DNA of 64,000 nucleotides from a virus (IMGVR_UViG_3300043598_000012:16881-80880); one strand, 5' to 3'. Shown: positions 1,461 to 38,315, numbered from the stretch's first letter. The notes: generated by a model from the sequence alone, not told the origin. Program-made: numbers and translations.

Positions 1461-1521
1461 GGTAGCAGATTTTTTCTACGAATCACGTGCCTTCTGTTGG
1501 CGTCTGTGCTAAGATGCTCGT
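1461..1521 (+). promoter_or_regulatory. Conserved leaderless promoter element, copy 1
   Basis: GGTAG(1461)-21 bp-GTGCCT-17 bp-TAAGAT-6 bp-ATG(1522). Confidence 0.85.
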
Positions 1522-1824
1522 ATGACCACCACTAACGAGTGCCTCCACGGAGGCTACCACCAGCCAGGGCAGTGCCCGGAGGCCAATGTCTTCGAGCGAG
1601 AGGCCTTCTACGACGAGCTCTACGAGCGGCAGGTGATGTCGGTCCTCGACCATGCCGAGACCATCGACGATTCCCGCACGCTCGCCGACCTGGACTTCGA
1701 GCCCCGCACCGTTGAGATCTGTCCAGACTGTGGCTCTGGTCACACCACTGAGTCTCGCATCTGGCGTGATGGCGAGCCGACCAACTTCTGCTGCACCGAA
1801 TGCGGAGCGAGGTGGACGCTGTGA
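1522..1824 (+). CDS. Hypothetical zinc-ribbon protein (leaderless)
   Basis: CPDCG...CCTECG motifs; starts at the predicted +1 of promoter copy 1. Confidence 0.7.
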   Translation: MTTTNECLHGGYHQPGQCPEANVFEREAFYDELYERQVMSVLDHAETIDDSRTLADLDFEPRTVEICPDCGSGHTTESRIWRDGEPTNFCCTECGARWTL

Positions 1825-2231
1825 ACATCATCGACAAGCTCGCAGAGCAGGGCATCGATCGAGAGCGGTTGGAGCGGGTGATGAAGCCCAAGGCAGAGAA
1901 CTGGGGTCACCTCGTCTATGCCTTCGAAGTGGTCACTGTGTTGGGAACGGTCCTCGACGCCATGCAAGAGGAGGTTCGCTGGCCTGACGTTGCTGACGAG
2001 CTCTATGACGCTCTTCAAGACGCTGCTGATGACAACAGCAATTGGTTGGAGCGTACCTACAGAGAGATCGAGGTCGCTTACTCCCGAGCATCTGTTGATG
2101 CTCTCAGCAAGATCTTCAAGCACTTGCGTGACCTTGATCAGCGTGGCCGCGATGAGGTGACTCGGGACGGTTGCCGTCGGGCCATGGCCATAGTCGAGCG
2201 ACTTCGATCTGCAACGGCAGCGGGCAGTTAG
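1821..2231 (+). CDS. Hypothetical helical protein
   Basis: GTG overlaps the upstream stop (GTGA); phage-typical codon usage. Confidence 0.6.
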   Translation: MNIIDKLAEQGIDRERLERVMKPKAENWGHLVYAFEVVTVLGTVLDAMQEEVRWPDVADELYDALQDAADDNSNWLERTYREIEVAYSRASVDALSKIFKHLRDLDQRGRDEVTRDGCRRAMAIVERLRSATAAGS

Positions 2232-2304
2232 CATCTGTGCGCAGCTCAACCAGCTCAGCCAAGATGAACCAGCACACCACCAACCATGTAGAAGCAGGAG
2301 ACCG

Positions 2305-2760
2305 ATGACCCCCACTGCAACCCCCATCTCTGTCGACGACCAATGGGCAGCCGCCCAGCGGGAGTTCGGTAAGAAGGTGAAGACCTTCGCCCGCAATAGT
2401 GCCTATGCCGTACCCGGCTACGACGAGGTGGACATGGAGCAAGAGCTCCTCGTCGTGCTGTGGGAATGCGTGGTGAACTACGACCCCGGCAAGGGAGCTC
2501 GGTTCAACACCTACTTCCAGACCTCCGCCAAGAACCGTATCGTGAGCCTGATCCGGCGGTTCCAGGCTCTGAGCCGCACGGCTGAAGTAGCATCTCTAGA
2601 CGTAGAGGCTGTGTCGCTAGCGGTGGACGAGGTGTTCGCCAAGGGCTACTCCGCTGAGGACACCGCGCTGTTGCGCATGGAAGTGCGTGAGGCAGTAGCC
2701 ACCCACGGAGAGGCATCCCTTGAGGGACGACGAGGACGGAAGCCGAAGCGGGTCGCCTAG
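2305..2760 (+). CDS. Sigma-70-family factor, region 2 only (truncated)
   Basis: DEVDMEQELLVVLWECVVNYDPGKGARFNTYFQTSAKNRI matches sigma region 2; no region-4 HTH visible; AGGAG RBS. Confidence 0.8.
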   Translation: MTPTATPISVDDQWAAAQREFGKKVKTFARNSAYAVPGYDEVDMEQELLVVLWECVVNYDPGKGARFNTYFQTSAKNRIVSLIRRFQALSRTAEVASLDVEAVSLAVDEVFAKGYSAEDTALLRMEVREAVATHGEASLEGRRGRKPKRVA

Positions 2761-2982
2761 CTCTAGGCAGGTAGACCACCTGGCCAACCCTCGTGCCGCT
2801 AGGTTCCTCGACTCGCTGGCTGCCCACCCGTTCCTCTGCATCGTCGTAGAGGGCGATAGGGTCAAGCTCTACGAGAAGGACATGGCGCCGGAGGCTCTAG
2901 AGGACCTCCTCACGGCTCTGGAGCGTACCATACCAGAGCGAGCTGCTGACCTAGGCAGCGAAATGCCCGGAGGAGGCAGTTA

Positions 2983-3756
2983 GTGGGTCTCACTGCTAAG
3001 ACGTTTAAGGGACTTGACAAGAAGCGCATGAAGAAGCGGTCAGGTGGTGGCGGGGACCGCGTCAAGGTGGAGGACGACAAGCCCAATACCGTGCAGTTCT
3101 ACGTCGCTCCTGACGAGTTCGAGGAGTTCGAGCAGCACGGGTGGCAGAGCGGCGGCAACTGGAATTTCGTCCCCTGCGCAGGCGAGGGTTGCCCGCTGTG
3201 CACCAATGAGGATGAGAAGATCCGTAAAACGAGCTACCGCTTCTGTGCGCCGGTCTTCGACCACAAGCAGAAGAAGAGTCTCATCCTCGAAGGTCCGCAG
3301 ACGATGGCGAGCATCATCTTCCGGCGCTACGAGGCTTGCGAGCGTCGGCGGGCGGGCTCGTTCCTCCGCAAGGTTTGGGATGTCACTCGGTTCAGCGGGA
3401 CTCCCACTACCTTCGATTGCGAGGAGAGCGAGAGCACGGCCAAGAACCCCAACGGGTTGCCGGAGCGGCTCGACCCCGCCAAGTACATCCAGGCTCAGAT
3501 GGACCGCTACTACGAGAACGCCTCGGCGGACGTGTCAGCCCTGGATGATAACTTCGATGGCGACAGCTTCGAGGAAGACGAGGATTGGCTGGACCTCGAC
3601 GAGGAAGGTGAAGAGGCCTGGGACAAGGAGTCCCTCCTGGCCCTGAAGCCGTCTGAGCTCAAGGACGCCGCCGCCGAGTTCAACATCAAGGTGCGCGAGG
3701 TCACTCGGGAGAACCGACCCAAGCTCATCGCAGCCATCCTGCGCAAGCAGGGCTAG
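2983..3756 (+). CDS. Single-stranded DNA-binding protein (gp32-like) with C-terminal Rho-N/HeH-like domain
   Basis: C..CPLC zinc motif, acidic linker, located in the replication cluster. Confidence 0.65.
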   Translation: MGLTAKTFKGLDKKRMKKRSGGGGDRVKVEDDKPNTVQFYVAPDEFEEFEQHGWQSGGNWNFVPCAGEGCPLCTNEDEKIRKTSYRFCAPVFDHKQKKSLILEGPQTMASIIFRRYEACERRRAGSFLRKVWDVTRFSGTPTTFDCEESESTAKNPNGLPERLDPAKYIQAQMDRYYENASADVSALDDNFDGDSFEEDEDWLDLDEEGEEAWDKESLLALKPSELKDAAAEFNIKVREVTRENRPKLIAAILRKQG

Positions 3757-3796
3757 TCCAACCCCAAGCAAAACCAACAACAAGGAGACCACACAC

Positions 3797-4324
3797 GTGG
3801 GAAGCAGCAAGATCAAGAAGGCACTCACGGCGCTGGAGGAGGCGCTCGGTGAAGCGGGGTTGGACTCTGTCCACGTCTCGCTCCAGATCCCGATCGGCTC
3901 CGGAGGCGTCTCGGAGGACGACCTCGACGACGGCGAAGAGGCCGTCGACGACGAGGACTGGGAGGAGGGTGGCGAAGAGGAAGAGGGCGAAGGCGAGCCC
4001 TACACTCGCGACGAGCTTGACGCCATGGAGACCAGCGACGTGCAGGCCATCTACAAGGAGCTCGTCGGTCCCCTGAAGCCTCGTACTCGCAAGAACACCC
4101 TCGTCACCGAGATCCTGGAGGCGCAGGAGGCTGGCGACGAGGAAGAGGGCGAGGAGGCTGGTGACGACGACTGGGACGACGAGGTCGTTGACGAGGAGGC
4201 TGAGCCCGAGGAGGAGGCCGAAGACGGCTGGGACGACGACTGGGATGACGAGCCGGAGCCCGCTCCCACCAAGCGTCCCGCCAAGAAGGCTGCTCCGGTC
4301 AAGAAGGCGGCGAAGCGCCGATGA
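3797..4324 (+). CDS. Very acidic protein with central HeH (Rho-N-like) domain and basic PAKK tail
   Basis: D/E/W-rich tracts; YTRDELDAM...KNTLVTEILEAQ; strong AAGGAG RBS. Confidence 0.7.
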   Translation: MGSSKIKKALTALEEALGEAGLDSVHVSLQIPIGSGGVSEDDLDDGEEAVDDEDWEEGGEEEEGEGEPYTRDELDAMETSDVQAIYKELVGPLKPRTRKNTLVTEILEAQEAGDEEEGEEAGDDDWDDEVVDEEAEPEEEAEDGWDDDWDDEPEPAPTKRPAKKAAPVKKAAKRR

Positions 4325-4605
4325 ACCGCACCGAGTTCATCAACGACCTCACCGAGTCCATGGATGGCCACGGTCTGAGCAAGACAGTCGTCAAGGCCAC
4401 GGTGGAGGCCTTCGAGGAGCTCGTCAAGGACGAGCTCGCCGAGGGAAGCGGCAGCGTCGTGCTCAGCGGGTTCGTCAAGTTCGAGCGGAAGGAGCGTGCC
4501 GCTCGCACGGGTCGCAACCCTCAGACGGGTGCGGAGATCCAGATCCCCGCCAAGACGGTGGTCAAGGTTACCCCGCTGAAGGCGTTCAAGGACGCCGTCC
4601 TCTAG
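4321..4605 (+). CDS. hup: HU family histone-like DNA-binding protein
   Basis: MNRTEFI...LSGFVKF...RAARTGRNPQTGAEIQIPAK HU/IHF signature. Confidence 0.95.
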   Translation: MNRTEFINDLTESMDGHGLSKTVVKATVEAFEELVKDELAEGSGSVVLSGFVKFERKERAARTGRNPQTGAEIQIPAKTVVKVTPLKAFKDAVL

Positions 4606-4625
4606 TCCGCCCACCATAGCAGCCA

Positions 4626-4682: not shown

Positions 4683-5279
4683 ATGCGCATGAAGAAGGGG
4701 TCCCTCGTCGTTGTGGAGGGGCTCGACTCAACAGGAAAGACGACGCTCGTGGACGCTCTAGCAGAGCACGTCCACGGCATCACGGCGGTGCACTCGCCCA
4801 GCGGTGGCGGTGAATTGGGCCAGGAGATCTACGAGCTCACCGAGCGGCCCAGGCCAATGGAGGGGCTTACTCGTCAGTTCTTACATCTTGCGGCCCACGT
4901 TGAGATTTACCAGAACACAGTAATCCCTGCCCTCTCGCAGAGCGCGGTCGTGATGGACAGGAACTGGTGTTCTACTTACGCCTACGGGATCGCAGGAGGC
5001 GTGCTGAAGAGCACCCCCATCTTCTCAGCCGATTGGTATGACACCGTGCAGTACCCTGCTCAGGGACAGGTGCCAGATCTCGTCGTGCTCTGCTTGGAGC
5101 CTCATCGAGACGACCGCCACAACACGCCGGAGCTCGAAGCTGCGTACCTTGATCTCAAGCGGAGGCTCGACAAGGACCCCGCTCTCAAGCACGTCCGGAT
5201 CATGCCCAAGCTCAGCAAGCGGGCACAGCTCATCGCTTTGATGCAGATGTGCCAGGAAGCCAACCTCACAAGGAGCTAG
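4683..5279 (+). CDS. tmk: Thymidylate-kinase-family dNMP kinase (candidate 5hmdUMP kinase)
   Basis: VVEGLDSTGKTT P-loop, VVMDR motif, adjacent to the TS-family gene. Confidence 0.85.
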   Translation: MRMKKGSLVVVEGLDSTGKTTLVDALAEHVHGITAVHSPSGGGELGQEIYELTERPRPMEGLTRQFLHLAAHVEIYQNTVIPALSQSAVVMDRNWCSTYAYGIAGGVLKSTPIFSADWYDTVQYPAQGQVPDLVVLCLEPHRDDRHNTPELEAAYLDLKRRLDKDPALKHVRIMPKLSKRAQLIALMQMCQEANLTRS

Positions 5280-5281
5280 CG

Positions 5282-6388
5282 ATGCACGAGTTCGTAGGCG
5301 AGGTCAATGAGGTGTACCCCGCCATGCTGCAAGCGGTGTTCAAGTTCGGCGAGCGTGTGCCGTCGAGAGTCGCCCCCACCATCGAGCTGCACCCCCTCGT
5401 GGCCGAGTTCGAGAACCCTCGTCGGCGTCTCGTCACCTCGTACGGCAGGGCAGTCAACGTGCCGTTCATGCTGGCTGAGGTGGTGCACATCCTCAACGGG
5501 CGAGAAGACCTCGCCTTCCTCGACCAGTTCAACAGCCAGGTCAAGGAGTACAGCGACGACGGTGTGCGCTTCAATGCTGCCTACGGACACCGGCTCCGTC
5601 ACGCACACGGCTACGACCAGGTCAGGGATGTCATCAAGCTCCTCAAGCGGGACCGGGGTACCCGTCAGGCGACGCTCACGATCTGGCACCCAGACGACCG
5701 CCATCACGAGCTTGTGCACGTCGAGTCGCACAACGGCGGTGTCGGTGATGGATGGAGCAAGGAAGAACCTCGCCAGGTCAAGGACCGGGCCTGCAACCTG
5801 CTCGCCCACCTGATGATCCGGGATGGTGTGCTCAACTGGATGCAGGTCATGCGGAGCAATGACGCCATCTGGGGGCTCCCCTACAACCTCATGCAATGGA
5901 CCTACCTCATGGAGTACATCGCCAACGAGGTGGGCGTGGAGCTCGGCGTCTACCGGCATATCGCCGACAGTTTCCACATCTACGACTACCACGAGGACGA
6001 GGCAAGCAAGGTCGCGCCCTTCGACCTCTACGAGCATCAGGGCCTGCGCTCTCGTTCGCATGCTCCGATGATCGCTGACGAATCTGCGTTGGAAGCAGCG
6101 GTCGAGCTCGCCAACCATGGTTGGAGCAGCGTTCATCACCCCGGCAACGTTCCTCAGTGGGTGATCGACTTTGGCCAGATCTGGTCAAGCTGGCGCTCCT
6201 ATAAGGAGCTCGACGATGCCGGAGCCCAGCATCAACTGACACGCGCCAACGATCAGATCTTCGCAGCGGCGACTTATCGCTTCTACTGGTCCAACCGCTG
6301 GCACAAGCAGGACCCCGGTCATCCGCGCCCAGACACCGTCAGAGCCGCATGGGGTTCGACCATCGGTGACTGGATCATGGCGTCATGA
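5282..6388 (+). CDS. Thymidylate synthase superfamily enzyme, probably dUMP hydroxymethylase
   Basis: AYGHRL, catalytic KDRACN, RSNDAIWGLPYN (Asn implies uracil specificity), SFHIY; co-occurs with 5hmU-modifying enzymes. Confidence 0.8.
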   Translation: MHEFVGEVNEVYPAMLQAVFKFGERVPSRVAPTIELHPLVAEFENPRRRLVTSYGRAVNVPFMLAEVVHILNGREDLAFLDQFNSQVKEYSDDGVRFNAAYGHRLRHAHGYDQVRDVIKLLKRDRGTRQATLTIWHPDDRHHELVHVESHNGGVGDGWSKEEPRQVKDRACNLLAHLMIRDGVLNWMQVMRSNDAIWGLPYNLMQWTYLMEYIANEVGVELGVYRHIADSFHIYDYHEDEASKVAPFDLYEHQGLRSRSHAPMIADESALEAAVELANHGWSSVHHPGNVPQWVIDFGQIWSSWRSYKELDDAGAQHQLTRANDQIFAAATYRFYWSNRWHKQDPGHPRPDTVRAAWGSTIGDWIMAS

Positions 6389-6555: not shown

Positions 6556-6589
6556 CTCGCCTAGTACACTAGAGGCTACAATGGTCCGT

Positions 6590-7129
6590 ATGGACCACGT
6601 CTCGATCTACGCCCTTTGCGACCCTGGCGGAGAGATCCGTTATGTAGGAAAGACGATGCAGCCGGTGAGCAACCGACTATCCATGCACGTCGCTGAAGCC
6701 AAGAACCCTCGATACCAGTGTCACAGACTCAACTGGATTCGATCTCTGTTGGATCAGGGAGCTCGCCCGGAAGCTGTGCTGCTGATGAAGGTGCCTGTCG
6801 CAGAGTGGGAGCTCTGGGAGTGCACCTAGATTGCTGTGTTGCGGGAGGCAGGCTACCGCCTGGTTAACAACACAGACGGTGGGGACGGGCGTGTAGGCCC
6901 ATTGAGCGAAGAGACGCGCCGCAAGATCGGCGAGGCCCATCGGGGGAAGCCGGTCAACCAGCCTGGCGTACCTTTGAAGGTGACGCACCGAGCGGCCATC
7001 AGCCGGTCGCTGGCAGGGAACCAACGAGGCAAAGGGAACCGTGGCAAGAAGCTCAGTGAAGAGCACAAGCGGAAGATCGGCGAGGCGCGACGCCGAGCCT
7101 ACGAGCGCCAGAGGGCAGAAGCCAGGTGA
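6590..7129 (+). pseudogene. GIY-YIG/NUMOD3 homing endonuclease broken by an in-frame TAG at 6827-6829
   Basis: SIYAL...RYVGKT motif and NUMOD3 repeats (SEETRRKIGEAHRGK, SEEHKRKIGEA) in one frame, separated by a single TAG where W is expected. Confidence 0.8.
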
Positions 7130-16124: not shown

Positions 16125-16927
16125 TCCATGTGGCCCGTTGGGGCAAGCACCACGAGCACGAGCTCGACGTAGGATAGGTGCTGTGAAGTCCCCCAGCCAC
16201 TTCCGATGCTTCCCCTGTCGAGCGCTCACCGAGATCGATCGGTCGCTGGAGCTCATGACGTGCGCCAACTGCGGAACGCACGAGGGAGACCTGGTCAACA
16301 TAGTGGCTTGCCCACGGCCAGAGACCTACACGCTTCCCGGCGAGAGCTGGCGGTGCAGCCTTCCCTTCCACGACTACCAGCGGGACGCCCACGTGGTCCC
16401 TTGGGAGCAGCGTGAGATGCTGCTGACGGACTGATGGCTACTGCAACCAAGACCCTCAACTTCAAGATCAACCTGGCCCCACTCCGCTGGGCGCTGCGCC
16501 AGATCGACCACACGCTCACGACTTGGTTCAACAAGCCATGGAACGTTGAGAACAAGTACGACCGACAGCGGCTGCGCGAGCTCGCCCAGAACGCAGTCGT
16601 GCTCGATGCTCTCGCTGATGACGATGCCTGAGCCCACCAAGCGGGAGATCAACCGGGGCATCGCCAGGGGGGCTCGTTGCCCCAACTGTCGAGCCTTCTG
16701 GTCTTGGTGTGTCTGCTCTGCTGTGGAGCGAGCATCTGCCATGCGAGCCCTGCTGGAGGAGCAGGTGCTGCTCTTCCGAGAGGTGGCTCACTGTGCCTGG
16801 CACCTCCTCGACGATGGTGGTGAAGTCGAGGGCGATGATGAGATGTGGCAAGGATCCAAGCGGGATGCCGACAGACTCTCGGATGCGCTCAACGACCTAG
16901 AGGCGAGTGGCTGGGACGCACACCCTG

Positions 16928-17884
16928 ATGCCTGACTTCCTGCCTGATGGTGAAGAGCGCTTCGAGGAGCTCGTGGAGTTCATGCTCCACATGCACAGCA
17001 GCCGGGACCTCGATCCGCTGTACCCAGTGCTGCGCAAGCTCCAGAACAACTTCAACCGAGAGCAGGGGCTCTGGTTCAGCTTCCTCTACGTGGCGTGGTA
17101 CAACCTGCCTTCGGCTTGGGCAGCGTTCAACATGTCTACCTACCCGACCGAGCTGCTACCTCTGTGGCTGGACCCCAAGTGGCCGACCGGCACAGAGCGT
17201 CGAGCCAACCGTGGTGGCAAGGTGGCCGAACACATCCAGGACTACATGCTCAAGATCGCGGGGAGCCGTAGTCAGTACCGCTGGTACACCAAGGACTTGG
17301 TGCTGGATGATCTTGATCAAGCAACCAAGGAGATCAACTGGTACACGCTCAACGAGCGCATCCAGTCACTCTTCATGAACGGTCGTTGGGCGGGATACAA
17401 GCACTGCGAGGTGCTGGCCAAGGTCAACGGCATCCCAGTGCTAGCTCCCCACATGGGTCACGCCAACAGTAGCGGACCTCGCCAAGGTCTTGCTATGATC
17501 TACGATTGCAGCGAGCTGACTGGCAACGACCCAGGCACCATCGCTGTGCTCGATGAGATGAGCGCGGACCTGACCTTCCAACTCGACCAAGCTCTCCCCG
17601 GCTTGAACCTGGAGATAGAGGACGTGGAGACGATCCTCTGCAACTGGAAGTCGCTGATGAAGGGCAAGTACTACGTCGGTCACGACATCGACGAGCTGCA
17701 AGAGCAGATCCTCCGAGCAGAGGAGCGTGGCATCCTTTCGAAGGAGTCCTCGCGCTACCTGTGGCGGGCTCGCAAGGCCGTCTTGCCGCACGAGTACCTC
17801 GGTGAACTGGGAGGATGGGAGGGCGTAGACCGACGGCGCATGGCTGCGTACAAAGACACTGGAAGGATTGAGGTGCGATCGTGA
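16928..17884 (+). CDS. aGPT-Pplase2 amino acid:DNA transferase (thymidine hypermodification)
   Basis: DLDPLY, PTGTERR, GRWAGYK, SGPRQGL, ETILC, YYVGHDIDE, LPHEYLGE motifs. Confidence 0.85.
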   Translation: MPDFLPDGEERFEELVEFMLHMHSSRDLDPLYPVLRKLQNNFNREQGLWFSFLYVAWYNLPSAWAAFNMSTYPTELLPLWLDPKWPTGTERRANRGGKVAEHIQDYMLKIAGSRSQYRWYTKDLVLDDLDQATKEINWYTLNERIQSLFMNGRWAGYKHCEVLAKVNGIPVLAPHMGHANSSGPRQGLAMIYDCSELTGNDPGTIAVLDEMSADLTFQLDQALPGLNLEIEDVETILCNWKSLMKGKYYVGHDIDELQEQILRAEERGILSKESSRYLWRARKAVLPHEYLGELGGWEGVDRRRMAAYKDTGRIEVRS

Positions 17885-18949: not shown

Positions 18950-19506
18950 CCTGCATCGCAGCCGTCGCTGGTGAAGACGGCACCGTGTACATGGGCGGGG
19001 ACTCCGCAGGGATCGACTCGCGTCTCGACCTTGGCATCCACGCTGAGACCAAGGTGTGGCGCTCAGGTCCGGCGCTCTTCGGGGCGTGTGGCTCCTTCCG
19101 AGTCGCCCAGCTCATCCGCAACAAGATGCACGTGCCGACCTACGAGCCGGGTGACGATGTCTGGCCCTACCTGGTCGGCCCGTTCATCGACGCCATGCGT
19201 GAGTCGCTGGCCATGGGCGGAGCCCTGGCGCAGTGGCTGGAAGATGCTAACGAGTCGATGTTCGGCAGCTTCGTGGTGGCCGTCGGCGGCAGGGTCTTTG
19301 AGATGTACGAGGACTTCGGCGTCGGAGAGCTTGTGCACGGCTACGCCGCAGTGGGTTGCGGAGCTCCGATGGCTGTCGGTTCCTTGGCGACCACCGAGCA
19401 CCTTCGAGTAGGCCCCAAGCGTCGAGTCGAACTTGCTCTAGAGGCAGCGGAGCGACACAGCGGAGGGGTGCGAGGCCCCATGCATATTGAGAAGCTCCCT
19501 GCATGA
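18946..19506 (+). CDS. HslV/proteasome-like Ntn hydrolase
   Basis: N-terminal MTCIAA (Thr nucleophile), GGDS, AVGCG. Confidence 0.75.
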   Translation: MTCIAAVAGEDGTVYMGGDSAGIDSRLDLGIHAETKVWRSGPALFGACGSFRVAQLIRNKMHVPTYEPGDDVWPYLVGPFIDAMRESLAMGGALAQWLEDANESMFGSFVVAVGGRVFEMYEDFGVGELVHGYAAVGCGAPMAVGSLATTEHLRVGPKRRVELALEAAERHSGGVRGPMHIEKLPA

Positions 19507-23013: not shown

Positions 23014-23580
23014 ATGAAGCGTTACATGTGTTACATCGTGGGAGAACCTGGCAGCGGCAAGACAACGCTGTGCCGAGAGTTCACATCTGACCTTCGCAAG
23101 AAGGTCAAGACTGTCCCCTACGTGAGCTATACTCACTTCGGCAAGGAGACCATGGAGCTCGGCCACGATCGGGAGACATTCGGGGGTACTGATGCTCTCG
23201 GGATGGCTGCCCAGAACCATGTGCTGGAGTTCCTGCGTAACGGACCTGGCGCCGAGTACCGCTACATCCTGGCGGAGGGGGACCGGCTTGCCAACGCCAA
23301 GTTCTTCGAGGCGGTGCGGGGCATGGGCATCGACCTGAACGTCTACGCCTTGCTACCTCCGGCCAAGGTCATCGAGCGTCGTCGAGCTGCCCGCAACGCA
23401 TCCATTGGCAAGGAGCAGAACGAGCGGTGGCTGAAGACGAGGGCCACCAAGGTTGCCAACATTGTCCACGATTGGGTTCCACCAGAGCATCGGCTGACCC
23501 AAAGACCAGAAGAGGTCCTTCGGATCATACTGGCAGACGATCCGGTGGCGAAGCAGTTGGCTCGGATGCGCGACTCCTAG
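23014..23580 (+). CDS. P-loop 5-hydroxymethyluracil DNA kinase (5-HMUDK)
   Basis: GEPGSGKTT, FGGTDALGM, AEGDRL motifs typical of the kinases that accompany aGPT-Pplases. Confidence 0.8.
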   Translation: MKRYMCYIVGEPGSGKTTLCREFTSDLRKKVKTVPYVSYTHFGKETMELGHDRETFGGTDALGMAAQNHVLEFLRNGPGAEYRYILAEGDRLANAKFFEAVRGMGIDLNVYALLPPAKVIERRRAARNASIGKEQNERWLKTRATKVANIVHDWVPPEHRLTQRPEEVLRIILADDPVAKQLARMRDS

Positions 23581-26032: not shown

Positions 26033-26329
26033 ATGACCACCGAAAAGGTTCAGCTGCTCGTTCTTCTCACCACCTCTGGGCCGTTGCCCATGGGCTACGC
26101 CGACAGTGACAGGGGCAAGGTGAGCCTGGGGCTCTCAGCGGCTCGCTACCAGCAAGCCAGGCTGGCGCACGGCCACCGCATCGTCGAGCTCTCTCAGCGC
26201 CGAGCTTCCTGGTGGATGTGCCACCAGATGTACGCAGAGCGGCAGATGATGATTGGGCATGCCTTGGCACGGCTCGAAGGCCGCACCTCCATGGGCTACG
26301 ACGAGTGGCGGTGGGGTCGCTTCTCTTGA
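26033..26329 (+). CDS. Hypothetical protein (leaderless)
   Basis: TAAGAT-6 bp-ATG. Confidence 0.55.
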   Translation: MTTEKVQLLVLLTTSGPLPMGYADSDRGKVSLGLSAARYQQARLAHGHRIVELSQRRASWWMCHQMYAERQMMIGHALARLEGRTSMGYDEWRWGRFS

Positions 26330-26390
26330 GGTAGAGGTGTTCTTTCCAACAAGACGTGCGAAGTTGCCAACCGTGAGGCAAGATGTTCCT
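26330..26390 (+). promoter_or_regulatory. Conserved leaderless promoter element, copy 2
   Basis: GGTAG-21-GTGCGA-17-CAAGAT-6-ATG(26391). Confidence 0.85.
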
Positions 26391-26801
26391 ATGACCACCA
26401 CACCTAAGACCGCTGCCGAGTGGATGCGCCACTACGAACATCTGCCGCTGAAGGATCTGAAGATCCACGCTGGACAGAGCATGGGGCTCAGCACCGCCGG
26501 AGGCAGGGAGGCGATCCTGGACCGCATCAGGGCTCTTCAGATCGAGGTGTATGGCCTTCCGACTCTTCCGATCAAAGACAAGATCTGGGACGACACGCTC
26601 TCCGAGTTCGAGAGCAGCTACGAGGCTGTAGGCCATGCGGCCTTCTGGATGTCCTTCACCGGCTCAACCTACGACCACAGCGGCTACTATGAGCTGCGCA
26701 CTCAACTGGAGGATCTTATCGACGAGGGCGAGCCTGAAGATGAGAATTGCCAGGATTTCGAGGCGTCACGTTGGAACGTCTACCAGGACTGTGCGTTCTG
26801 A
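26391..26801 (+). CDS. Hypothetical protein with N-terminal SAP/HeH-like motif
   Basis: YEHLPLKDLK...GLSTAGGREAILDRI. Confidence 0.6.
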   Translation: MTTTPKTAAEWMRHYEHLPLKDLKIHAGQSMGLSTAGGREAILDRIRALQIEVYGLPTLPIKDKIWDDTLSEFESSYEAVGHAAFWMSFTGSTYDHSGYYELRTQLEDLIDEGEPEDENCQDFEASRWNVYQDCAF

Positions 26802-30399: not shown

Positions 30400-30804
30400 G
30401 TGGAACCTCGCAACCCTGCTCTCCGAGAGCACGTCACACGAGTCGGCTTCAACCTCTCGCTCACCACCACGCAGATCGCCATCCTCGTCGAGATCAACGA
30501 GTGCTGGGCCAAGGACCGGCACGTCGTAGGTTGGGGTTCTCCTTGGTCACACTTCGCCAGCACGTCGAGAGCTCTCCGAGTTCGAGGTCTGGTGTGGCAC
30601 GAGTTCCCGGAGTGCAGTGCGGAGGATCGCTACAAGCACCCTCCCAGCGAGTACTTCGGGCTCACTGCGGCTGGTCAGTTCGTTGTGGGGTTGCTGTCTG
30701 AGGCAGGCCTCTACGAGGACGTGCTGGAGATGATGCGCCGTCACGAGGCGGAGGGGCGCCTGAAGACGTGGTCTCACGAGCAGCATCTAGCGAACAGACC
30801 TTGA
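30400..30804 (+). CDS. Hypothetical protein, possibly winged-helix (leaderless)
   Basis: TACTAT-6 bp-GTG; ...ALRVRGLV...FGLTAAG wHTH-like pattern. Confidence 0.55.
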   Translation: MEPRNPALREHVTRVGFNLSLTTTQIAILVEINECWAKDRHVVGWGSPWSHFASTSRALRVRGLVWHEFPECSAEDRYKHPPSEYFGLTAAGQFVVGLLSEAGLYEDVLEMMRRHEAEGRLKTWSHEQHLANRP

Positions 30805-30875
30805 GGTAGAAGGGTCTTTCCAGAAACTTTCAGAAATCACGTGCGTTCTGGTTACGGCTGGGGTATAGTCACTTC
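30805..30875 (+). promoter_or_regulatory. Conserved promoter element, copy 3 (+10 bp variant, leadered)
   Basis: GGTAG-31 bp (TTTCCAGAAA/TTTCAGAAA duplicated)-GTGCGT-17-TATAGT. Confidence 0.85.
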
Positions 30876-30920
30876 AGACCGCTTCACCGAGGAGCGGACC
30901 CAGCACCAAGGAGTACCACC

Positions 30921-31202
30921 ATGTTCATGTCCGCCAAGGCCATCAAGCGGTTCGAGGATCTCTACGAGGTGTCCCCCAAGGACGTCAAGGGCCTCAAGTT
31001 CCTCTCCATCTCCCGCTCCACCGGCACCCTCGTCGCCACGTACGACGGCACCAAGATCGACGTCGGCCAGACCGCTGACGACTTCCGTTGGGTGACCGTC
31101 GACGAGGACAAGGGCATCCTCACCACCCACGAGTCCCTCTCGGACGCTCGCTACGCAGCCAGCTTCCCCGAGCTCTGGGCCGACGAGTCCGTCGCTGCCT
31201 GA
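30921..31202 (+). CDS. Hypothetical protein, probably highly expressed
   Basis: AAGGAG RBS, strong C/G third-position bias, flanking hairpins. Confidence 0.8.
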   Translation: MFMSAKAIKRFEDLYEVSPKDVKGLKFLSISRSTGTLVATYDGTKIDVGQTADDFRWVTVDEDKGILTTHESLSDARYAASFPELWADESVAA

Positions 31203-32010: not shown

Positions 32011-32481
32011 AGAGGACGATCATACCGCAAATGGCTTGTGCGTAAGATACTAGCCTATGACCAAGCGAACCAAGCAGGACGAGTGGCCTCCTCTCTGGGC
32101 CATCTGGGGGCTCAGGAAGGGCTGGCACCCTCTGGAAGCTGGAGCATGGCATCCCCTGTTCCACTACAAGTCAGAGGCTGGAGCCAGGCGAGGAGAGCGG
32201 CTCGTGATCGAAGCTCAGGCTCATGAGAAGCACCTGCTGAGCCTCACACGAGGAGTCCGCGGTAGGCACGGTGCAGGCATCCAGGGCTACGTCCGCTTCA
32301 AGGCGGTGAGGCCAGGGTCCACGCCAGTCAACCCGGCCAAGGTGCGCCCCACGAGGCGCCGTAAGAGCTGCCTCCGCTGCCACCACTCGATGCCGGTGAA
32401 GCGTTGGCGCATGCTCCGGCAGTGCTCCGAGTGTGGGTGGGTGCCCAAGCCCTACCGTCGAGCGCGAGCTGCATAGTCCCA

Positions 32482-32542
32482 GGTAGCAATGTTCTTTCCA
32501 CAAGCACGTGCGGAGCTTGAAGGGATGTGTAAAGATAGCGTC
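32482..32542 (+). promoter_or_regulatory. Conserved leaderless promoter element, copy 4
   Basis: GGTAG-21-GTGCGG-17-AAAGAT-6-ATG(32543). Confidence 0.8.
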
Positions 32543-32781
32543 ATGGACACCAACGATCGTCGCCAAGGACCCCGTCGGGCATCCGAGCAGAGGGCACACC
32601 TCGCTCGGGAGCTCATCCTGGAGCAGGCACGAGCTCTCGTCAGCATAAACCGCCGACCGGCCACCACGTTGGTCGAGCAGAGCGAGCAGGCAGTCGACAT
32701 GCGTCGCAAGGTGGCCGACCTGGGCACCCTGATCGACACGCTCGACGAGGCAGAAGAGCTTGTCAAGCAGGAGCGAGTCAA

Positions 32782-34143
32782 GTGAGCGAGTTCGTCGGCA
32801 ACGACCCCATGATGAAGCACCTCGTGGAAGGCACCTTGCCTGCCGTCCTCTCCGAGGACGACCAGCTCATCGCAGGACGAGGCAAGACCTCCGGCGACAA
32901 GCTGGAAGCGATGCTCCGCAAGGTGAGGGCTCTCCTCACTCAAGCGGAGGACCCCGGAGCCACCCCGCAGGAGGCTCAGATCTTCCGCAACAAGGCGGAG
33001 GCTCTCATGCTCCGCTACCGGATCGACGAGGCCATGCTGGCCGACGCTCCGGACACCGGTCTCATGCCTCAGTGGAACACGATCATCGTGTGTGAGAAGA
33101 GCCAGTACCGCTCCTTCTACGAGGGCATTGCCAAGAAGGTCGTCGAGCACGTTGGTGCTCGGGGCGAGATCAAGCGCACCTGGGATGACCGTGGACACTA
33201 CATCGTCGAGCTGCACTACGTTGGGTTCCCCAGCGACATCCGGCTTGTCGACATGCTGTACACCACAGCACAGGTGGCCTTCAACACCAAGCTGGAGCCC
33301 AAGTACAACCCGGAGCTCTCCGACCAGGAGAACGCCTACAACATGCGCCATGCGGGCATGGAGGGTTGGCGCATCGCCATGGCCATCTGGGGGACACGAG
33401 GCAACAGTGTGTGCTGCGACAAGCGGAGCCACTGGAGGCAGTGCGAGCCGTGCGGCCAGGGCCACCATGACCAGTGCGCCATCCCGGAGGTCAACGACGC
33501 CAACCTGTACAAGGCACGTCGGCTCTTCAAGAAGGAGGCCTTGGAGCGCGGGGAGGATCCGTCCTCATTGCTCGGCCAAGGCAACTCGATGCAGGTGTAC
33601 CGGGACAGCTACGCCAATGGCTTCTACTGGGAGCTGTTGCGGCGCCTCCGGGAGATGCAGGACAGCCGTGGCTCCGAGTCCGTCGGCATTGAGCTCGGCG
33701 GACGTAGGGAGAAGATCGACCAAGCCTTCTACCGTGAGTACCCGCAGTACGCTCCAGCCAAGGCAGCCATTGGTTACGTGGCTCCGGAGGGTGAAGCAGA
33801 CATCGACGAGGAGGAGGCTGACAAGGAGCTCCGTTGCCCGTGGGATGGCTGTGGCGAGGTCGTCGAGGCAGGAGACGACCCGTGTCCGCACTGCGGGCTC
33901 CCCATTGATTGGGCAGCCAAGCTGGACCGCAACCACGGTCGAGGCACCTATCAGGACCCCCGAGAGGGCTGTGAGAAGTGCCAGCGGGCCAAGAGCGGCT
34001 ACTGCCGAGACCACTCGTACCTCCGGCCCAGCACGGCTCAGTACCGAGAGCGTGCCCACAGCCCAGCGGGGGAGCGTGCCGGTCGTGCAGCGGCTCGCAG
34101 CGTGGACCTTGGGCGAGGACCACGAGGCAGGTTGGGCTCGTAG
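32782..34143 (+). CDS. DUF2786-like domain protein with zinc-finger insertions
   Basis: KVRALLTQAE...TPQEA...KAEALMLRYRID; several CxxC motifs. Confidence 0.75.
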   Translation: MSEFVGNDPMMKHLVEGTLPAVLSEDDQLIAGRGKTSGDKLEAMLRKVRALLTQAEDPGATPQEAQIFRNKAEALMLRYRIDEAMLADAPDTGLMPQWNTIIVCEKSQYRSFYEGIAKKVVEHVGARGEIKRTWDDRGHYIVELHYVGFPSDIRLVDMLYTTAQVAFNTKLEPKYNPELSDQENAYNMRHAGMEGWRIAMAIWGTRGNSVCCDKRSHWRQCEPCGQGHHDQCAIPEVNDANLYKARRLFKKEALERGEDPSSLLGQGNSMQVYRDSYANGFYWELLRRLREMQDSRGSESVGIELGGRREKIDQAFYREYPQYAPAKAAIGYVAPEGEADIDEEEADKELRCPWDGCGEVVEAGDDPCPHCGLPIDWAAKLDRNHGRGTYQDPREGCEKCQRAKSGYCRDHSYLRPSTAQYRERAHSPAGERAGRAAARSVDLGRGPRGRLGS

Positions 34144-34148
34144 TCCCA

Positions 34149-34209
34149 GGTAGAGAGGTTATTTCCAGAATCACGTGCGAAGTTGGAAAGCCTGAGGTAA
34201 GATGCTCTC
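34149..34209 (+). promoter_or_regulatory. Conserved leaderless promoter element, copy 5
   Basis: GGTAG-21-GTGCGA-17-TAAGAT-6-ATG(34210). Confidence 0.88.
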
Positions 34210-34914
34210 ATGACCACCACCGCCTTCCCAACCACGGTCCTCCGCTCCGAGTGGGGCACCTCGTACCACACGAGCTCTGCCTTCGAGGGCTGCAACCTCA
34301 GCGTCAAGCGGCTCGTCGATGAGCCCAACGAGCACGGAGGCGTTGGCAACACCCATCGCCATCCCATCTACGACGGCATCCACTTCCCCACGAGCGATGC
34401 GGCTCGCTTCTTCGCTCTCCTCGTCGGCCTCGTCCGGCCCTACACCTACTGGGGTGCCAAGTGACCAGCACGACCACCTACGACGCAGACCTCGCTGCTG
34501 CGGGCATCAAGCTCCTCTCCAAGAAGGATCGGGAGCACCTCCACCCCCGAGCCCAGGTCCAGAAGCTCCGCAGGATCGCTGTCCGGGCCACCAACAAGGC
34601 CGACTGGAACGGGGAGCTCGCCGCACAGTACCCCGGTGACGAGATGTACGCCACCGATCCGGAGGAGCAGACCAAGCTGCGGCTCAAGGCACGCCAGGCC
34701 ACGGAGGCCATGTGCCTCCTCAACGCCGAGCACGGGCTGGGCTACTGATGGCCAGCAAGGACAAGCGAGGCACTCAGGGTGGACCTTGGGCTGTGCTCGG
34801 ATACGACGGACAGGTCCTTGAAGGCCGCTGGCCTACCGAGCTGATGGCCGTGGAAGAGGGCTTGTGTGGGCGCTACCTGCTCACCGGCCTGGAGGTCAAG
34901 GAGGTGGGCGGGGC

Positions 34915-35943
34915 ATGAGCAAGCTCGTCTACAAGAGCTGGAAGCCCCAAGCGGAGGCCATCCGCACGGTGGAACTCGCCAACCGCATCTGCGCCGAGTA
35001 CGCGGCCGACGGGTACGACCTCACGTTGCGTCAGCTCTACTACCAGTTCGTGGCGAGGGGCTACATCCCCAACAACCAGAAGTCCTACGACCGCTTGGGG
35101 AGCACCATCAACCGTGCTCGGCGAGCAGGGATGATGGACTGGAACTACATCGTCGACCGCACGAGGAGCCTCTCCGGCGCCGAGCACTTCGCCAAGCCTG
35201 GGGACAGCATCCTCAAGTCGGCTCGCAAGTACAGCGAGGACCTCTGGGCCAAACAGCCCCTCCGCATTGAGGTGTGGGTGGAGAAGGAGGCACTGGCTGG
35301 AGTCATTGAGCGAGTGTCCGGCACCAACGATGTGGACAGTTTCGCATGCAGAGGCTACGTCTCCCAGAGCGAGCTCTGGAGTGCTGGACAGCGGATCCTC
35401 AACTACATCCAGCACGGCCAGAGGGTTCTCATCCTGCACTTGGGAGACCACGACCCCTCCGGCATCGACATGACTCGGGACATGAGGGAGCGCCTTGAGC
35501 TCTTCACCGAGAGGGACTGGCACCGAGCCAACCTCGACGAGCTCGGAGCGTCCACCACGCTTGGCTCCATCCGAGACCACATGCGGGCAGCAGTCGGCTA
35601 CGAGCAGCCTCTCGAGATCCGGCGGATCGCACTCAACATGGATCAGGTCGAGCAGTACGCTCCTCCGCCCAACCCGGCCAAGTTGACCGACAGCCGAGCG
35701 GAGGGCTACGTGGAGCTCTACGGCGACGAGAGCTGGGAGCTAGACGCTCTGGAGCCGCAGGTGATCAGCGACCTCGTGCAGCGGCACATCGTGGCCGAGA
35801 GGGACGACATTGCCTGGGACCGCGCCGTCAAGCACGAGGAGGAGAACCGTCGCAACATGGTGGCGGCTGCTGAGCGGTGGGACGACCTCGTGAACCTGCT
35901 CCCCACGCTTCCGCCGAAGGAGTCTTCCCAGGTAGAAGGGTAA
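34915..35943 (+). CDS. Topoisomerase VI-A/Spo11-like (JetD/DUF2399-related) TOPRIM protein
   Basis: TLRQLYY, EVWVEKEAL, RGY.S, HLGDHDPSG, WELDAL. Confidence 0.75.
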   Translation: MSKLVYKSWKPQAEAIRTVELANRICAEYAADGYDLTLRQLYYQFVARGYIPNNQKSYDRLGSTINRARRAGMMDWNYIVDRTRSLSGAEHFAKPGDSILKSARKYSEDLWAKQPLRIEVWVEKEALAGVIERVSGTNDVDSFACRGYVSQSELWSAGQRILNYIQHGQRVLILHLGDHDPSGIDMTRDMRERLELFTERDWHRANLDELGASTTLGSIRDHMRAAVGYEQPLEIRRIALNMDQVEQYAPPPNPAKLTDSRAEGYVELYGDESWELDALEPQVISDLVQRHIVAERDDIAWDRAVKHEEENRRNMVAAAERWDDLVNLLPTLPPKESSQVEG

Positions 35944-35991
35944 TTTCCAAGAACACGTGCGAATCTTCGCAGGGTGAGGCATAGTGTTGGT
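35931..35991 (+). promoter_or_regulatory. Conserved leaderless promoter element, copy 6
   Basis: GGTAG-21-GTGCGA-17-CATAGT-6-ATG(35992). Confidence 0.88.
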
Positions 35992-36960
35992 ATGACCGCA
36001 ACCACCTTCACCAACTCAGCCTTCGTTCGCAGCCACGTCAAGCAGCCACGTGGGTTCGGGCACTGGGGCTTCCAGGCCACCACCAAGGACACCGCTTTCT
36101 CTGAGGAGCTCTTCGGGCCGGTCGTTTGGGCCACTGGCACTCTCACAGAGGCCAAGACCTCTGCTGTCCAGCAACTCCGCAACCAAGGTGTCGACACCTC
36201 GCTCGTGGCGGTCCTGCCGTGAGCCACCTTTCCGACCTCAGCTGGGAGGACTCCGCCAGCCTCGTCTCCTACGACGACAACCACGCCGACCTCCGAGCCG
36301 ACTCACACCGCATCACGATGCAGCCAGGACCCACCTCCATCAAGCAGGACGTCGTCATCGACCTGCGGGACAGCAGCAAGGTGGACGCCTGATGGCTCGC
36401 CACAAGCACACGTGGGAGGCCACCTTGTCGAAGCCAAGGCCTGCCGATGGATGGGTGCCCTACGAGCACGTGGTCGTCACCACGGCCTGCACCTCATGCC
36501 CAGCGAACTCCAGCTCTACGAGGGCGACGTGAAGGTCGCTCCGCTGGCTCACCAGCAATCGTGGCCGCTCCGAGCCCTGTTGTGGGCTCTGTGGCTCGCT
36601 CGCGTGGCCTTCGGGGTCACCCTGCACATGCTCCGCTCGTTGGCCACCTACGAGGCACCTCCGACTCCGAGGCAGGCTTCAGATCGCCGAGCAGCACGCC
36701 TAGTGACCCAAGAGCGAGTCGAGAGGCACAGCGCCACAGTGCGAGCCGAGCAGGACACCCTGCACCCAGGAGAGGAGCCCTTCTGATGAGAAGCAACTTC
36801 GATCCAGCTGAGGATACCGCTCCCGATGCGGGTGAGTATTGGGAGAACTATGTCGACGTCTCAGCCGAGCTCGCTGCTGCCCGAGCAGCGGTAGAGGCAG
36901 ACAAGGCCAAGGAGGCAGCGCGGGTGGCTGCCTGGGAGGCAGATCGCACACGTCTTCCCT

Positions 36961-37021
36961 GGTAGGAGCGTTCTTTCCAGAAAGGCGTGCGAAGTGGAGA
37001 GCGGTGAGGCATAGTGTCCCT
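36961..37021 (+). promoter_or_regulatory. Conserved leaderless promoter element, copy 7
   Basis: GGTAG-21-GTGCGA-17-CATAGT-6-ATG(37022). Confidence 0.88.
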
Positions 37022-37348
37022 ATGACCACAACCACTGACACCACCACCGCATTCTACGCTTGGGGCTCCGAGCAGGAGAGCATCGACAACAAGCAGATGG
37101 CCCGCATCGTCTCCGGAGTCGACGAGGTCGTCCGCTCCGCCAAGCAGGCCATCAAGGAGCTGGAGGAGCTCGTCGCCAAGGTCACGGCCGTGGATCCGGA
37201 GGAGATGGTTCTCTCGGGCGATCGTGCCCTGTCCGCTGTCCAGCACTTCGCACGGCATGCTGGCTACAGCAACTCACCGGCCACCTACGTCGCCGAGACC
37301 TACGCAGCCGCTGGCAAGGTGGCTGGGCAGCTGGAGATGGTCTTCTAG
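37022..37348 (+). CDS. Hypothetical helical protein (leaderless)
   Basis: Starts at +1 of promoter copy 7; terminator downstream. Confidence 0.7.
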   Translation: MTTTTDTTTAFYAWGSEQESIDNKQMARIVSGVDEVVRSAKQAIKELEELVAKVTAVDPEEMVLSGDRALSAVQHFARHAGYSNSPATYVAETYAAAGKVAGQLEMVF

Positions 37349-37388
37349 CCTCCGCAGACCAACAGCAGAACTCAGGCACAACGGAGTC

Positions 37389-37414
37389 AGGCCACTCGCA
37401 AGAGTGGCCTTCTT
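37389..37414 (+). terminator. Intrinsic terminator
   Basis: AGGCCACTC-GCAA-GAGTGGCCT followed by TCTT. Confidence 0.8.
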
Positions 37415-37551
37415 CGTGTGCATAGGACCTTCTTAGCATCCGCAGAGGCCGCTTGCTACAGATCGAGGCACCTACACCTCCAGCAGGACGCTCGGGAGCC
37501 CTTAGCGGACGTTTCACCGAGCCACTCGGCACTTGAGGTAACATGGCTGGC

Positions 37552-38244
37552 ATGGGAACAACCACACGCCGAGCTCGACCTCCTGTCCCGCCGACGCGCC
37601 CTGGCAAGGGTGGCCACGGGCGCCTCAAGCAGGGAGGATCCAAGTCCGCCTCTCCGTTCAACCGTGCCGAGCGTAGGGAGAAGGGCTTCAAGCTCATCGC
37701 CAAGGGCTACACCAACGTCGAGATCGCTGCTGAGCTCAAGGTGCATCCAGACACGGTGACGAGGCTCCGCAAGGCCTACGCCGACCAGGTGCAAGCGGAG
37801 GCAGCCGCCAACCCGCACTTGCTCAACGAGGTCATTGCCAACACCATCCGGACGCTCAATGAGCTCGATCTCATCCGCAAGGAAGCATGGGCAGCACACG
37901 ACACCATGCATGCAGAAGGTCGGGAGTGCTCCGAGTGCGGACATGAGGATGTCGTCTACCGAGGTCCCAAGGGCGAGACCAAGGCACAGATGCTCCGCAT
38001 CCTGCTTCAAGCCAATGACCAGAAGGCGAAGCTGTTCCAGCTGTTCGGTGTCAAGGCCGAGTTCATGGCGCACGTCAACCAGGTGGCCCAGCTCCAGACA
38101 CGGCTCATGGCCTTCATGCGGGACAACCTCTGCGAGGCAGACCGCAACAGGCTGGAGGACTTCCTGGGCACCCTCACCGGTGCCGTGGCCTCCAACGAGG
38201 CTCTCGCTGAGCTGGACGTGGTGGAGGCAGAGCTCGTAGGCTGA
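37552..38244 (+). CDS. HTH protein, probable terminase small subunit
   Basis: RREKGFKLIAKGYTNVEIAAELKVHPDTV HTH, then helical ELDLIRKEAW...KAKLF pattern. Confidence 0.6.
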   Translation: MGTTTRRARPPVPPTRPGKGGHGRLKQGGSKSASPFNRAERREKGFKLIAKGYTNVEIAAELKVHPDTVTRLRKAYADQVQAEAAANPHLLNEVIANTIRTLNELDLIRKEAWAAHDTMHAEGRECSECGHEDVVYRGPKGETKAQMLRILLQANDQKAKLFQLFGVKAEFMAHVNQVAQLQTRLMAFMRDNLCEADRNRLEDFLGTLTGAVASNEALAELDVVEAELVG

Positions 38245-38254
38245 CTAGTTACCA

Positions 38255-38315
38255 GGTAGAAGCGTTCTTTCACAGAACGCGTGCGTTCTTGTCACTGATC
38301 AGGCATAGTGTTGGT
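38255..38315 (+). promoter_or_regulatory. Conserved leaderless promoter element, copy 8
   Basis: GGTAG-21-GTGCGT-17-CATAGT-6-ATG(38316). Confidence 0.88.

Follow-up and report, generated by a model that had tools for sequence, protein, structure and literature searches.

This analysis concerns a window of 64,000 nucleotides, bases 16,881–80,880 of the 80,880-bp IMG/VR virus record IMGVR_UViG_3300043598_000012, and a unit of about 85 bp that recurs in it. The record, which comes from an uncultured soil phage, has terminal repeats and is rated complete. Positions are counted from the first letter of the stretch; within the unit, the A of the ATG is numbered +1. The genome has a G+C content of 60.5%, and all plausible genes in a rough gene call lie on the + strand. 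The phage encodes a DnaG-like primase, a DnaE-type polymerase and a SNF2 helicase for replication, RecA and a RuvC-like gene for recombination, and portal and capsid genes. The RuvC-like gene was assigned from a match in a distantly related virus, G001, and not from Pfam. HU-family, WhiB-like and sigma-region-2-only proteins are also encoded, as identified by Pfam. Because WhiB-like proteins are restricted to Actinobacteria and their phages (PMC13013590), the host is presumably an actinobacterium. The unit, present in eight full copies designated E1–E8, is very probably a promoter for leaderless mRNA.

All eight copies are on the + strand at gene boundaries (Table 1). They head eight groups of mostly orphan genes, and the proteins encoded downstream are mutually unrelated. 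Seven copies lie within 26.3–38.3 kb, among orphan genes. E1, the most divergent full copy, sits between the primase gene and a replication and nucleotide-metabolism module. The first-pass annotation had listed eight GGTAG positions and a common layout, and each was found exactly where it had been placed. It had also described the element as starting at or overlapping an upstream stop codon. Each unit indeed adjoins or overlaps the stop codon of the open reading frame (ORF) that ends just upstream; at E7 that ORF is not a called gene. The 5′ end of E6 codes for the final residues of a 342-residue topoisomerase-like protein.

The unit consists, from 5′ to 3′, of (CCCA/TTGA)GGTAG, GTTCTTTCCAGAA, CGTGCG, a 13-nt spacer, TGAGG, a yAnnnT hexamer, six nucleotides and ATGACCACC. 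It extends from about −69 to +15, as delimited by blastn high-scoring segment pairs (HSPs) of 71–98 nt between two phages, and is longer than the 61 bp described earlier. An alignment of 12 copies from these two phages, eight from this genome and four (Ra–Rd) from the metagenome contig L097, defines the invariant columns: GGTAG, a TT, CGTG, T−17, G−14, A−11, T−7 and A+1. The spacer between the −35 and −10 boxes is free. A −35-like hexamer, GTGCGA (GTGCCT in the first copy), lies 17 bp from the yAnnnT hexamer, and CGTGCG agrees with TTGACA at three of six positions when read as GTGCGA. Ten copies have 6 nt between the −10 hexamer and the ATG, and Ra and Rd have 7 nt; the exceptional copy, E3, has a leader. 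Weak dyad elements (TTTC-N2-GAAA, CACGTG) occur in some copies only.

Table 1. Boxes of the repeated unit, its copies in the window and candidate reader proteins. Box positions are relative to the A of the ATG (+1); all other positions refer to the window.
Feature	Position	Strand	Description
Upstream border	about −69..−62		(T)CTTCCCA or CTTGA; contains or adjoins the stop codon of the upstream ORF
GGTAG box	−61..−57		GGTAG, invariant
T/A tract	−52..−40		GTTCTTTCCAGAA; T-tract, then A-rich part
−35-position box	−36..−31		CGTGCG; CGTG invariant in 12/12
Spacer	−30..−18		13 bases, unconserved
Extension of −10	−17..−13		TGAGG; T−17 and G−14 invariant in 12 copies
−10 hexamer	−12..−7		yAnnnT (TAAGAT, CATAGT, CAAGAT, AAAGAT, TATAGT); A−11 and T−7 invariant in 12/12
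Gap	−6..−1		six free bases
First codons	+1..+15		ATGACC(A/G)C(A/C)ACC = MT(T/A)T; first 4–5 codons, part of the unit
E1	1453..1536	+	GGTAG 1461, CGTGCC 1486, TAAGAT 1510–1515, ATG 1522; 29.7 bits
E2	26322..26405	+	GGTAG 26330, CGTGCG 26355, CAAGAT, ATG 26391 (136-residue orphan); 72.1 bits
E3	30797..30920	+	GGTAG 30805, CGTGCG 30840, TATAGT 30864–30869, predicted +1 at about 30876
E4	32474..32557	+	GGTAG 32482, CGTGCG 32507, AAAGAT, ATG 32543; 42.9 bits
E5	34141..34224	+	GGTAG 34149, CGTGCG 34174, TAAGAT, ATG 34210; 69.5 bits
E6	35923..36006	+	GGTAG 35931, CGTGCG 35956, CATAGT, ATG 35992; 64.0 bits
E7	36953..37036	+	GGTAG 36961, CGTGCG 36986, CATAGT, ATG 37022; 63.7 bits
E8	38247..38330	+	GGTAG 38255, CGTGCG 38280, CATAGT, ATG 38316; 60.3 bits
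Core-only copy	38984..39022	+	CGTGTC-N13-TGGGG-TAGAGT-N6-ATG 39020; upstream module degenerate
Core-only copy	39473..39538	+	CGTGCG-N13-TGAGG-CATAGT, leader with AAGGAG Shine-Dalgarno, ATG 39536; upstream module absent
Sigma-like protein, 151 residues	2305..2760	+	Pfam Sigma70_r2 only, residues 25–85; candidate only
HU-family protein, 94 residues	4321..4605	+	Pfam Bac_DNA_binding 2.5e-27; candidate only
WhiB-like protein, 147 residues	14649..15092	+	Pfam Whib 2.9e-11; aligns with WhiB3/WhiB1 chains; candidate only

The copies are set apart from the rest of the genome as whole units. In a leave-one-out analysis, a position weight matrix built from six ungapped copies was used to score the seventh; the gapped copy E3 was outside this set. 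The seven ungapped copies score 29.7–72.1 bits, and the best other site on either strand of the 80,880-bp genome scores below 0. The copies also emerge from an independent repeat search, as its main non-coding families (D2, D3, D9 and D14). The window contains 147 occurrences of bare GGTAG, most of which read CTACC on the coding strand. Its abundance reflects codon usage on the opposite strand, so only the whole unit is informative. The core CGTGCG-N13-TGAGG-yAnnnT is found at ten sites. Two of these have no upstream module, and the core is therefore separable from it. These two core-only copies, previously described as −35/−10 partial elements, are present with the same box spacing as the full copies.

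A leaderless promoter best explains this pattern, because the unit has two blocks, a free spacer, invariant A−11, T−7 and G−14, and a fixed 6-nt distance to the ATG. The hexamer is of the TAnnnT type, lies 6–7 nt from the start codon and has no Shine-Dalgarno sequence between it and the start, E3 excepted. The distance from the first G of GGTAG to the ATG is exactly 61 nt in the seven ungapped copies, as the first-pass annotation had it. Its reading of the element as a leaderless promoter agrees with the −10 geometry and with A−11 and T−7 in all 12 copies, but does not extend to E3, which is leadered. The first codons appear to be part of the same arrangement. From +4 to +18 the units are 79% A+C, compared with 56% in other genes (p = 8e-5). 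Translation of leaderless messages is reportedly enhanced by CA repeats after the start (PMC9031893). The first codons, which are CA-rich (ATGACCACCACC), belong to the unit and probably favour leaderless translation. Since the joints include the first few codons, otherwise unrelated proteins share an MTTT N terminus.

E3 differs from the other copies in two respects. First, the TTTC(C)AGAAA box is duplicated in tandem, which adds 10 bp and lengthens the distance between GGTAG and GTGCG to 31 bp, compared with 21 bp elsewhere, as had been noted. GGTAG consequently lies at −71 to −67 in E3 and at −61 to −57 in the seven other copies. Second, the leaderless ATG has lost its T, leaving the vestige A-GACCGCTTC where E8 has ATGACCGCTTC, and a leader of about 45 nt with an AAGGAG Shine-Dalgarno sequence precedes an ATG at 30921. 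The displacement by one helical turn is compatible with face-of-helix dependence. The earlier description of the set as helically phased fits this one shift, but a single displaced copy is not a pattern; because the leaderless ATG of E3 has disappeared as well and a leader has been acquired, the change is better regarded as a single event. The segment 30870–30921 looks like a snapshot of a conversion between leaderless and leadered starts. In L097, the homologue of the E3-driven gene (minus strand, 1531–1640) remains leaderless and, at 288 residues as against 93, exceeds it by about 195 residues.

Leaderless initiation extends beyond the units. A consensus scan detected no canonical TTGACA-17-TATAAT-like promoter in any intergenic region of the genome. 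Many other genes start 6 nt after a TAnnnT hexamer and have no upstream module. Because these genes also show TAnnnT-N6-ATG, leaderless initiation appears to be the rule in this phage rather than a peculiarity of the units. As predicted promoters, the eight units are one distinct class among its leaderless starts. A second class has CG directly before TA(C/G)(C/G)AT, followed by 6 nt and the ATG, and has no upstream module. Its sites are at 42177, 42914, 44770 and 47769 (42–48 kb), and also at 39996 and 25870. It would fit a gp55-like sigma that reads the −10 element only. G001 likewise has a cgTAYnnT-N6-ATG pattern and a sigma-region-2-only protein (41% identity).

Comparison with L097 indicates a second property of the units. 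A scan of JGI metagenome contigs with a 21-base pattern returned this one contig (Ga0190271_10043104, 3,772 bp). Its minus strand carries the 3′ part of a homologue of the 342-residue topoisomerase-like gene, with 79.5% DNA identity, followed by the four units Ra–Rd. Their layout is unchanged, their starts are leaderless ATGACC, and they score 47–62 bits with the matrix derived from the present genome alone. Outside the shared gene, nucleotide homology detected by blastn is limited to the units and ends 15–22 nt after the ATG. The long HSP likewise stops at 36013, 21 nt after the ATG at 35992. L097 has two extra cassettes after the 342-residue gene, and a homologue of the E3-driven gene sits behind Rb. 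E7 and Rd are 86% identical over 79 nt and both follow a conserved 124-residue gene; the genes behind them are non-homologous.

Gene differences in this 3.8-kb fragment are thus bounded by units, in line with the synteny comparison suggested earlier. Recombination within units would explain these differences, which supports cassette exchange. The 80–85-bp islands of homology between unrelated genes suggest that the units serve as crossover points, a role that we consider rather probable.

The unit appears to be specific to a narrow, poorly sampled lineage, as it was not found in G001, in 80 further viral loci, in GenBank phages or in GTDB genomes. G001 (IMGVR_UViG_3300015195_000005; loci L013–L016) is the sole IMG/VR relative by capsid, with 54% identity and a G+C content of 51%. 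It shares the primase, the sigma-like protein, DnaE, RecA, WhiB, structural genes and the RuvC-like match, but neither the unit nor its core occurs in it. None was detected in the 80 IMG/VR loci with homologues of the 342-residue protein together with G001 (1.56 Mb). Across IMG/VR, a 16-base pattern gave single chance matches only, and a 19-base pattern that fits 10 of the 12 copies gave no match. The 19-base pattern had one chance match among GTDB species genomes, inside a gene of a low-GC Firmicute metagenome-assembled genome. Within these genomes, therefore, the unit does not recur as a motif of host chromosomes or prophages. Megablast and blastn searches of GenBank phages matched the topoisomerase-like gene and nothing else, and a terminase search of IMG/VR found no close relative.

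The 342-residue protein itself (34915–35943, next to E6) belongs to a very large family, with 8,000 matches scored. The family corresponds to PHROG 6247 ('DNA topoisomerase'), includes DUF2399-like names and occurs in phages of Actinobacteria and Proteobacteria. The closest protein relatives are P0002 (76%, 19 kb) and P0004 (73%, 68 kb). In G001, TTTCCGAAA occurs 24 times, 12 per strand, where base composition predicts 0.54 occurrences. The word is similar to the unit's TTTCC(A)GAA box and is often followed by (A/C)(G/C)T; by eye, its positions are not promoter-like.

In the mechanism proposed here, RNA polymerase with a housekeeping-type sigma, namely host sigma-A, would read the −10 hexamer together with TGAGG. 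Transcription would start on the A of the start codon and yield a leaderless mRNA. The module at −70 to −31, which comprises the CGTGCG box, GTTCTTTCCAGAA and a (C)CAGGTAG box centred near −60, would dock a putative sequence-specific factor of phage or host origin. The docked factor would replace the contact of sigma region 4 with the −35 position, by class I/II activation or by sigma appropriation. A reader other than unmodified sigma region 4 or alpha is suggested because the −35 box is conserved yet unlike TTGACA, and because GGTAG is invariant and G-rich. The eight promoters would produce nested, co-directional operons in the orphan-gene region (26–40 kb) and the replication module (E1); the nesting would follow from read-through of the units, as no terminators lie between them. 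The units would also act as crossover points at which cassettes are gained, lost or moved, possibly with the phage's own RecA and RuvC-like gene. What the sequence itself establishes is the repeat, its geometry, conservation of DNA and not of RNA or peptide, and the different cassettes of a relative; promoter activity, the +1 position, the factor and the timing are inferred. Taken as a whole, the view that the units are lineage-specific, factor-aided promoters of leaderless mRNAs that double as crossover points stands evenly balanced. Factor-dependent activation through the upstream module is tentative and falls slightly on the doubtful side.

Several genes in the window could encode the factor (Table 1). 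The first-pass annotation had named WhiB, a truncated sigma and a host factor as candidate activators. The first two are encoded by the phage, and all three are candidates only. The phage WhiB retains an aromatic pair aligned to the FF of WhiB3. The sigma-like gene lies in the operon behind E1, and its product has a basic C-terminal tail, RRGRKPKR, and weak matches to region 2 of WhiG/FliA. Phage WhiB-like proteins bind sigma-A region 4 (PMC13013590), and for this reason a route to altered reading of the −35 position exists. The WhiB-like protein could block sigma-A region 4 and a lineage-specific partner could read CGTGCG and CCAGGTAG, in an actinobacterial form of sigma appropriation. Each phage lineage would then steer host polymerase through promoter signals of its own, which would at the same time delimit the gene cassettes open to exchange; this particular version is improbable. 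No MotA/AsiA-like family turned up in the approximately 45 proteins scanned, which are a part of the proteome.

A number of points weigh against the proposed mechanism. The WhiB and sigma-like proteins are not specifically tied to the element, because both are present in G001, which lacks it, and no AT-hook is visible in the phage WhiB. The promoters might work without an activator, given a good −10 hexamer and G−14. The T-then-A tract at −51 to −40 resembles the layout of an UP element of the E. coli consensus. The earlier statement that there is no Shine-Dalgarno sequence holds for the 6-nt gap, but the conserved GAGG at −16 to −13 could be a weak ribosome site for read-through transcripts and not a promoter element. 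Cassette exchange rests on one 3.8-kb fragment of a relative. The runs that contain the phage sequence are two soil-metagenome DNA runs, probably from the source sample, and no RNA run is listed among them.

The alternative that survives best is that the units are strong early promoters used by host polymerase alone, with the tract at −52 to −40 acting as an UP-like site for alpha C-terminal domains. Their long conservation would then reflect selection for strength and copying between units, as in T4 early promoters. The housekeeping-type −10 with G−14 agrees with this, as does the position of the units at the head of small orphan genes, as expected in early host-takeover regions. An AT-rich tract at the UP position is conspicuous in a genome of 60.5% GC. 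An incoming phage also needs promoters that are independent of phage proteins, and no canonical ones are found elsewhere in the genome. However, CGTG is invariant in all 12 copies and yet belongs to a box with only a three-of-six match to TTGACA, an invariant G-rich GGTAG at −61 to −57 is unexpected for contacts of the alpha C-terminal domain, and the other leaderless promoters of the genome manage without the module. We consider this explanation unlikely.

Somewhat less likely again is that the module or the CGTGCG box is an operator, through which an early phage protein shuts the set off at the switch to later genes. Candidates for such a protein are the HU-like protein, the 68-residue HTH-like product behind E8 and a 233-residue helix-turn-helix (HTH) protein. 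Stoperators, the CIR sites of phiC31 and TF1 of SPO1 are parallels. One site common to all units of the region suits coordinate control, and the box overlaps the −35 position. The HU-family protein is accompanied by a thymidine-hypermodification set, the combination known for SPO1 TF1, and weak dyads are present in some copies. These dyads are not kept across copies, however, and the module is asymmetric and co-oriented with transcription. Neither a repressor nor an integrase was found among the proteins scanned, again a part of the total. The core-only copies keep CGTGCG without the upstream part, so the two parts may differ in role.

A phage holoenzyme is a highly improbable reader. Here the 151-residue protein would replace host sigma and touch the AT-rich box with its basic tail. 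The protein matches sigma-70 region 2 only, its gene behind E1 would allow positive feedback, and the RRGRKPKR tail is absent from the homologue in G001, a virus without the element; this co-occurrence rests on two genomes. A sigma with region 2 only cannot account for a conserved box at the −35 position, and the −10 of the unit is of the housekeeping type. The CG-TAssAT-N6-ATG class, common to G001, fits such a protein better.

Finally, conservation for a non-transcriptional reason, as an RNA element at upstream 3′ ends, an N-terminal peptide of paralogues or a small mobile element, is extremely improbable, even though the units overlap upstream stop codons and the frame is open through the unit in several copies, with FFPxRRAK...VRHSVP peptides. 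RNAalifold found 0 pairs in the 12-copy alignment, that is, no consensus RNA fold, and an RNA structure was rejected. A terminator scan of 25.5–45 kb found 11 sites, compared with 8.4 expected from shuffling. One of them (26318–26339) overlaps a unit, across the GGTAG of E2; a terminator function was rejected, as the sites are at chance level and have no consistent association with units. A conserved peptide was rejected as well. In E1 and E5 a longer ORF is excluded by an in-frame TAA at −12; in E6 an in-frame TAA lies at −51. No alternative start exists in Rc, and in Ra and Rd the frame before the ATG is displaced by one base. Only the ATG at +1 is available as a start in every copy. The conserved blocks are contiguous, with no third-position pattern, and the proteins encoded downstream are not related to one another. 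The translated unit (residues 28–70 of the ORF 36839–37348) yielded no candidate in a protein search, and the alignment of the copies gives no sign of terminal inverted repeats.

Two further readings were considered. AATCACGTGCG does not fit an IHF site by eye, and the −35 box does not fit SigB/SigF-type or ECF-type promoters.

The promoter reading can be compared with several known systems. The promoter-early stem-loops (PeSLs) of T4-type phages are one of them (Arbiol et al. 2010, PMC2839356; Comeau et al. 2014, PMC4122927). Like PeSLs, the units are short conserved regulatory repeats amid small non-essential or orphan genes, and unit-bounded indels and replacements point to their use as recombination homology. 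Many copies are found in a variable small-gene region with unit-bounded differences, as seen in one relative fragment. A PeSL, however, combines a sigma-70-like promoter with a stem-loop terminator, whereas the units have neither stem-loop nor terminator. The units do have a −10, but their −35 box is non-canonical (CGTGCG/GTGCGA, three of six positions of TTGACA), and a consensus scan of 25.5–45 kb finds no consensus-like −35/−10 promoter. They also abut the start codon and carry the first 4–5 codons, and the host phylum and phage type are unrelated. The analogy drawn earlier therefore holds for the shuffling role, with L097 homology confined to the units and the conserved gene, but not for membership.

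In T4 middle promoters, MotA and AsiA bring about sigma appropriation: a host −10 is combined with a phage-specific box, and sigma region 4 is remodelled. The units likewise pair a housekeeping −10 with a box at the −35 position that is conserved and particular to the phage, which would imply bypass or remodelling of sigma region 4; this is an analogy only. They differ in that the box lies at −36 to −31 and a further module extends upstream to about −70.

Cluster O mycobacteriophages have predicted leaderless SigA-like promoters, and short repeats flank their indels (Cresawn et al. 2015, PMC4351075). Those promoters have SigA-like −35/−10 boxes and are not copies of one long unit, and the repeat is a separate 17-bp palindrome. 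In the present units, by contrast, promoter and repeat form one asymmetric unit of 85 bp. Class I activator sites of the CAP type are centred near −61.5 and −71.5. The geometry of the units is compatible with such sites, as the conserved box has its centre near −60, or near −70 in E3, the single copy in which 10 bp are inserted. The present site is asymmetric and not a dyad, however, and the phasing comes from a single copy.

The start-associated sequences (SAS/ESAS) of Cluster K mycobacteriophages (Pope et al. 2011, PMC3203893) resemble the units as asymmetric repeats that directly precede the start codons of some of the genes of an actinophage. The present unit has a length of about 85 bp, a −10 geometry and no leader. 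The SAS are about 13 bp long and adjoin the ribosome-binding sites of genes with a leader. Judged from these comparisons, the units are one lineage's version of a strategy already known from phages.

Other features of the genome are as follows. An 80-residue orphan and then a DUF2786 protein (Pfam) follow E4, and a 68-residue protein with a sub-threshold HTH match follows E8. The thymidine-hypermodification set comprises a thymidylate-synthase-like protein, a thymidylate-kinase-like protein, an amino-acid:DNA transferase, a dCTP-deaminase-like protein and a P-loop nucleotide kinase 3. Together with the HU-family protein, it lies at 4321–4605, 4683–6388, 16907–17884, 19503–20084 and 23014–23580. 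The phage DNA, including the T-rich promoter boxes, probably carries modified thymidines. SPO1, in which hmU DNA occurs together with the HU-family protein TF1, is a parallel. No gene was called in a stretch of 1,131 bp at 40332–41462. A sub-threshold LAGLIDADG match in a leaderless 111-residue gene (39996–40331) may be the remnant of a homing endonuclease. Just before DnaE, at 6581–7129, two adjacent small ORFs, possibly a remnant of this type as well, contain ..IYALCDPGGEIRYVGKT.., which is GIY-YIG-like by eye only. tRNA and Rfam searches of the window gave no match.

These observations bear on how actinophages without canonical −35 boxes programme host polymerase and on the role of phage WhiB-like proteins. 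An 85-bp element with three separable boxes makes both questions testable. If the proposed reading is true, the unit would serve as a defined piece of DNA with which to seek the factor guiding RNA polymerase in this lineage of phages, and as a compact, portable promoter-plus-start module for high-GC actinobacteria. The comparison with L097 suggests that promoter repeats may act as joints for orphan-gene swaps outside the T4 group.

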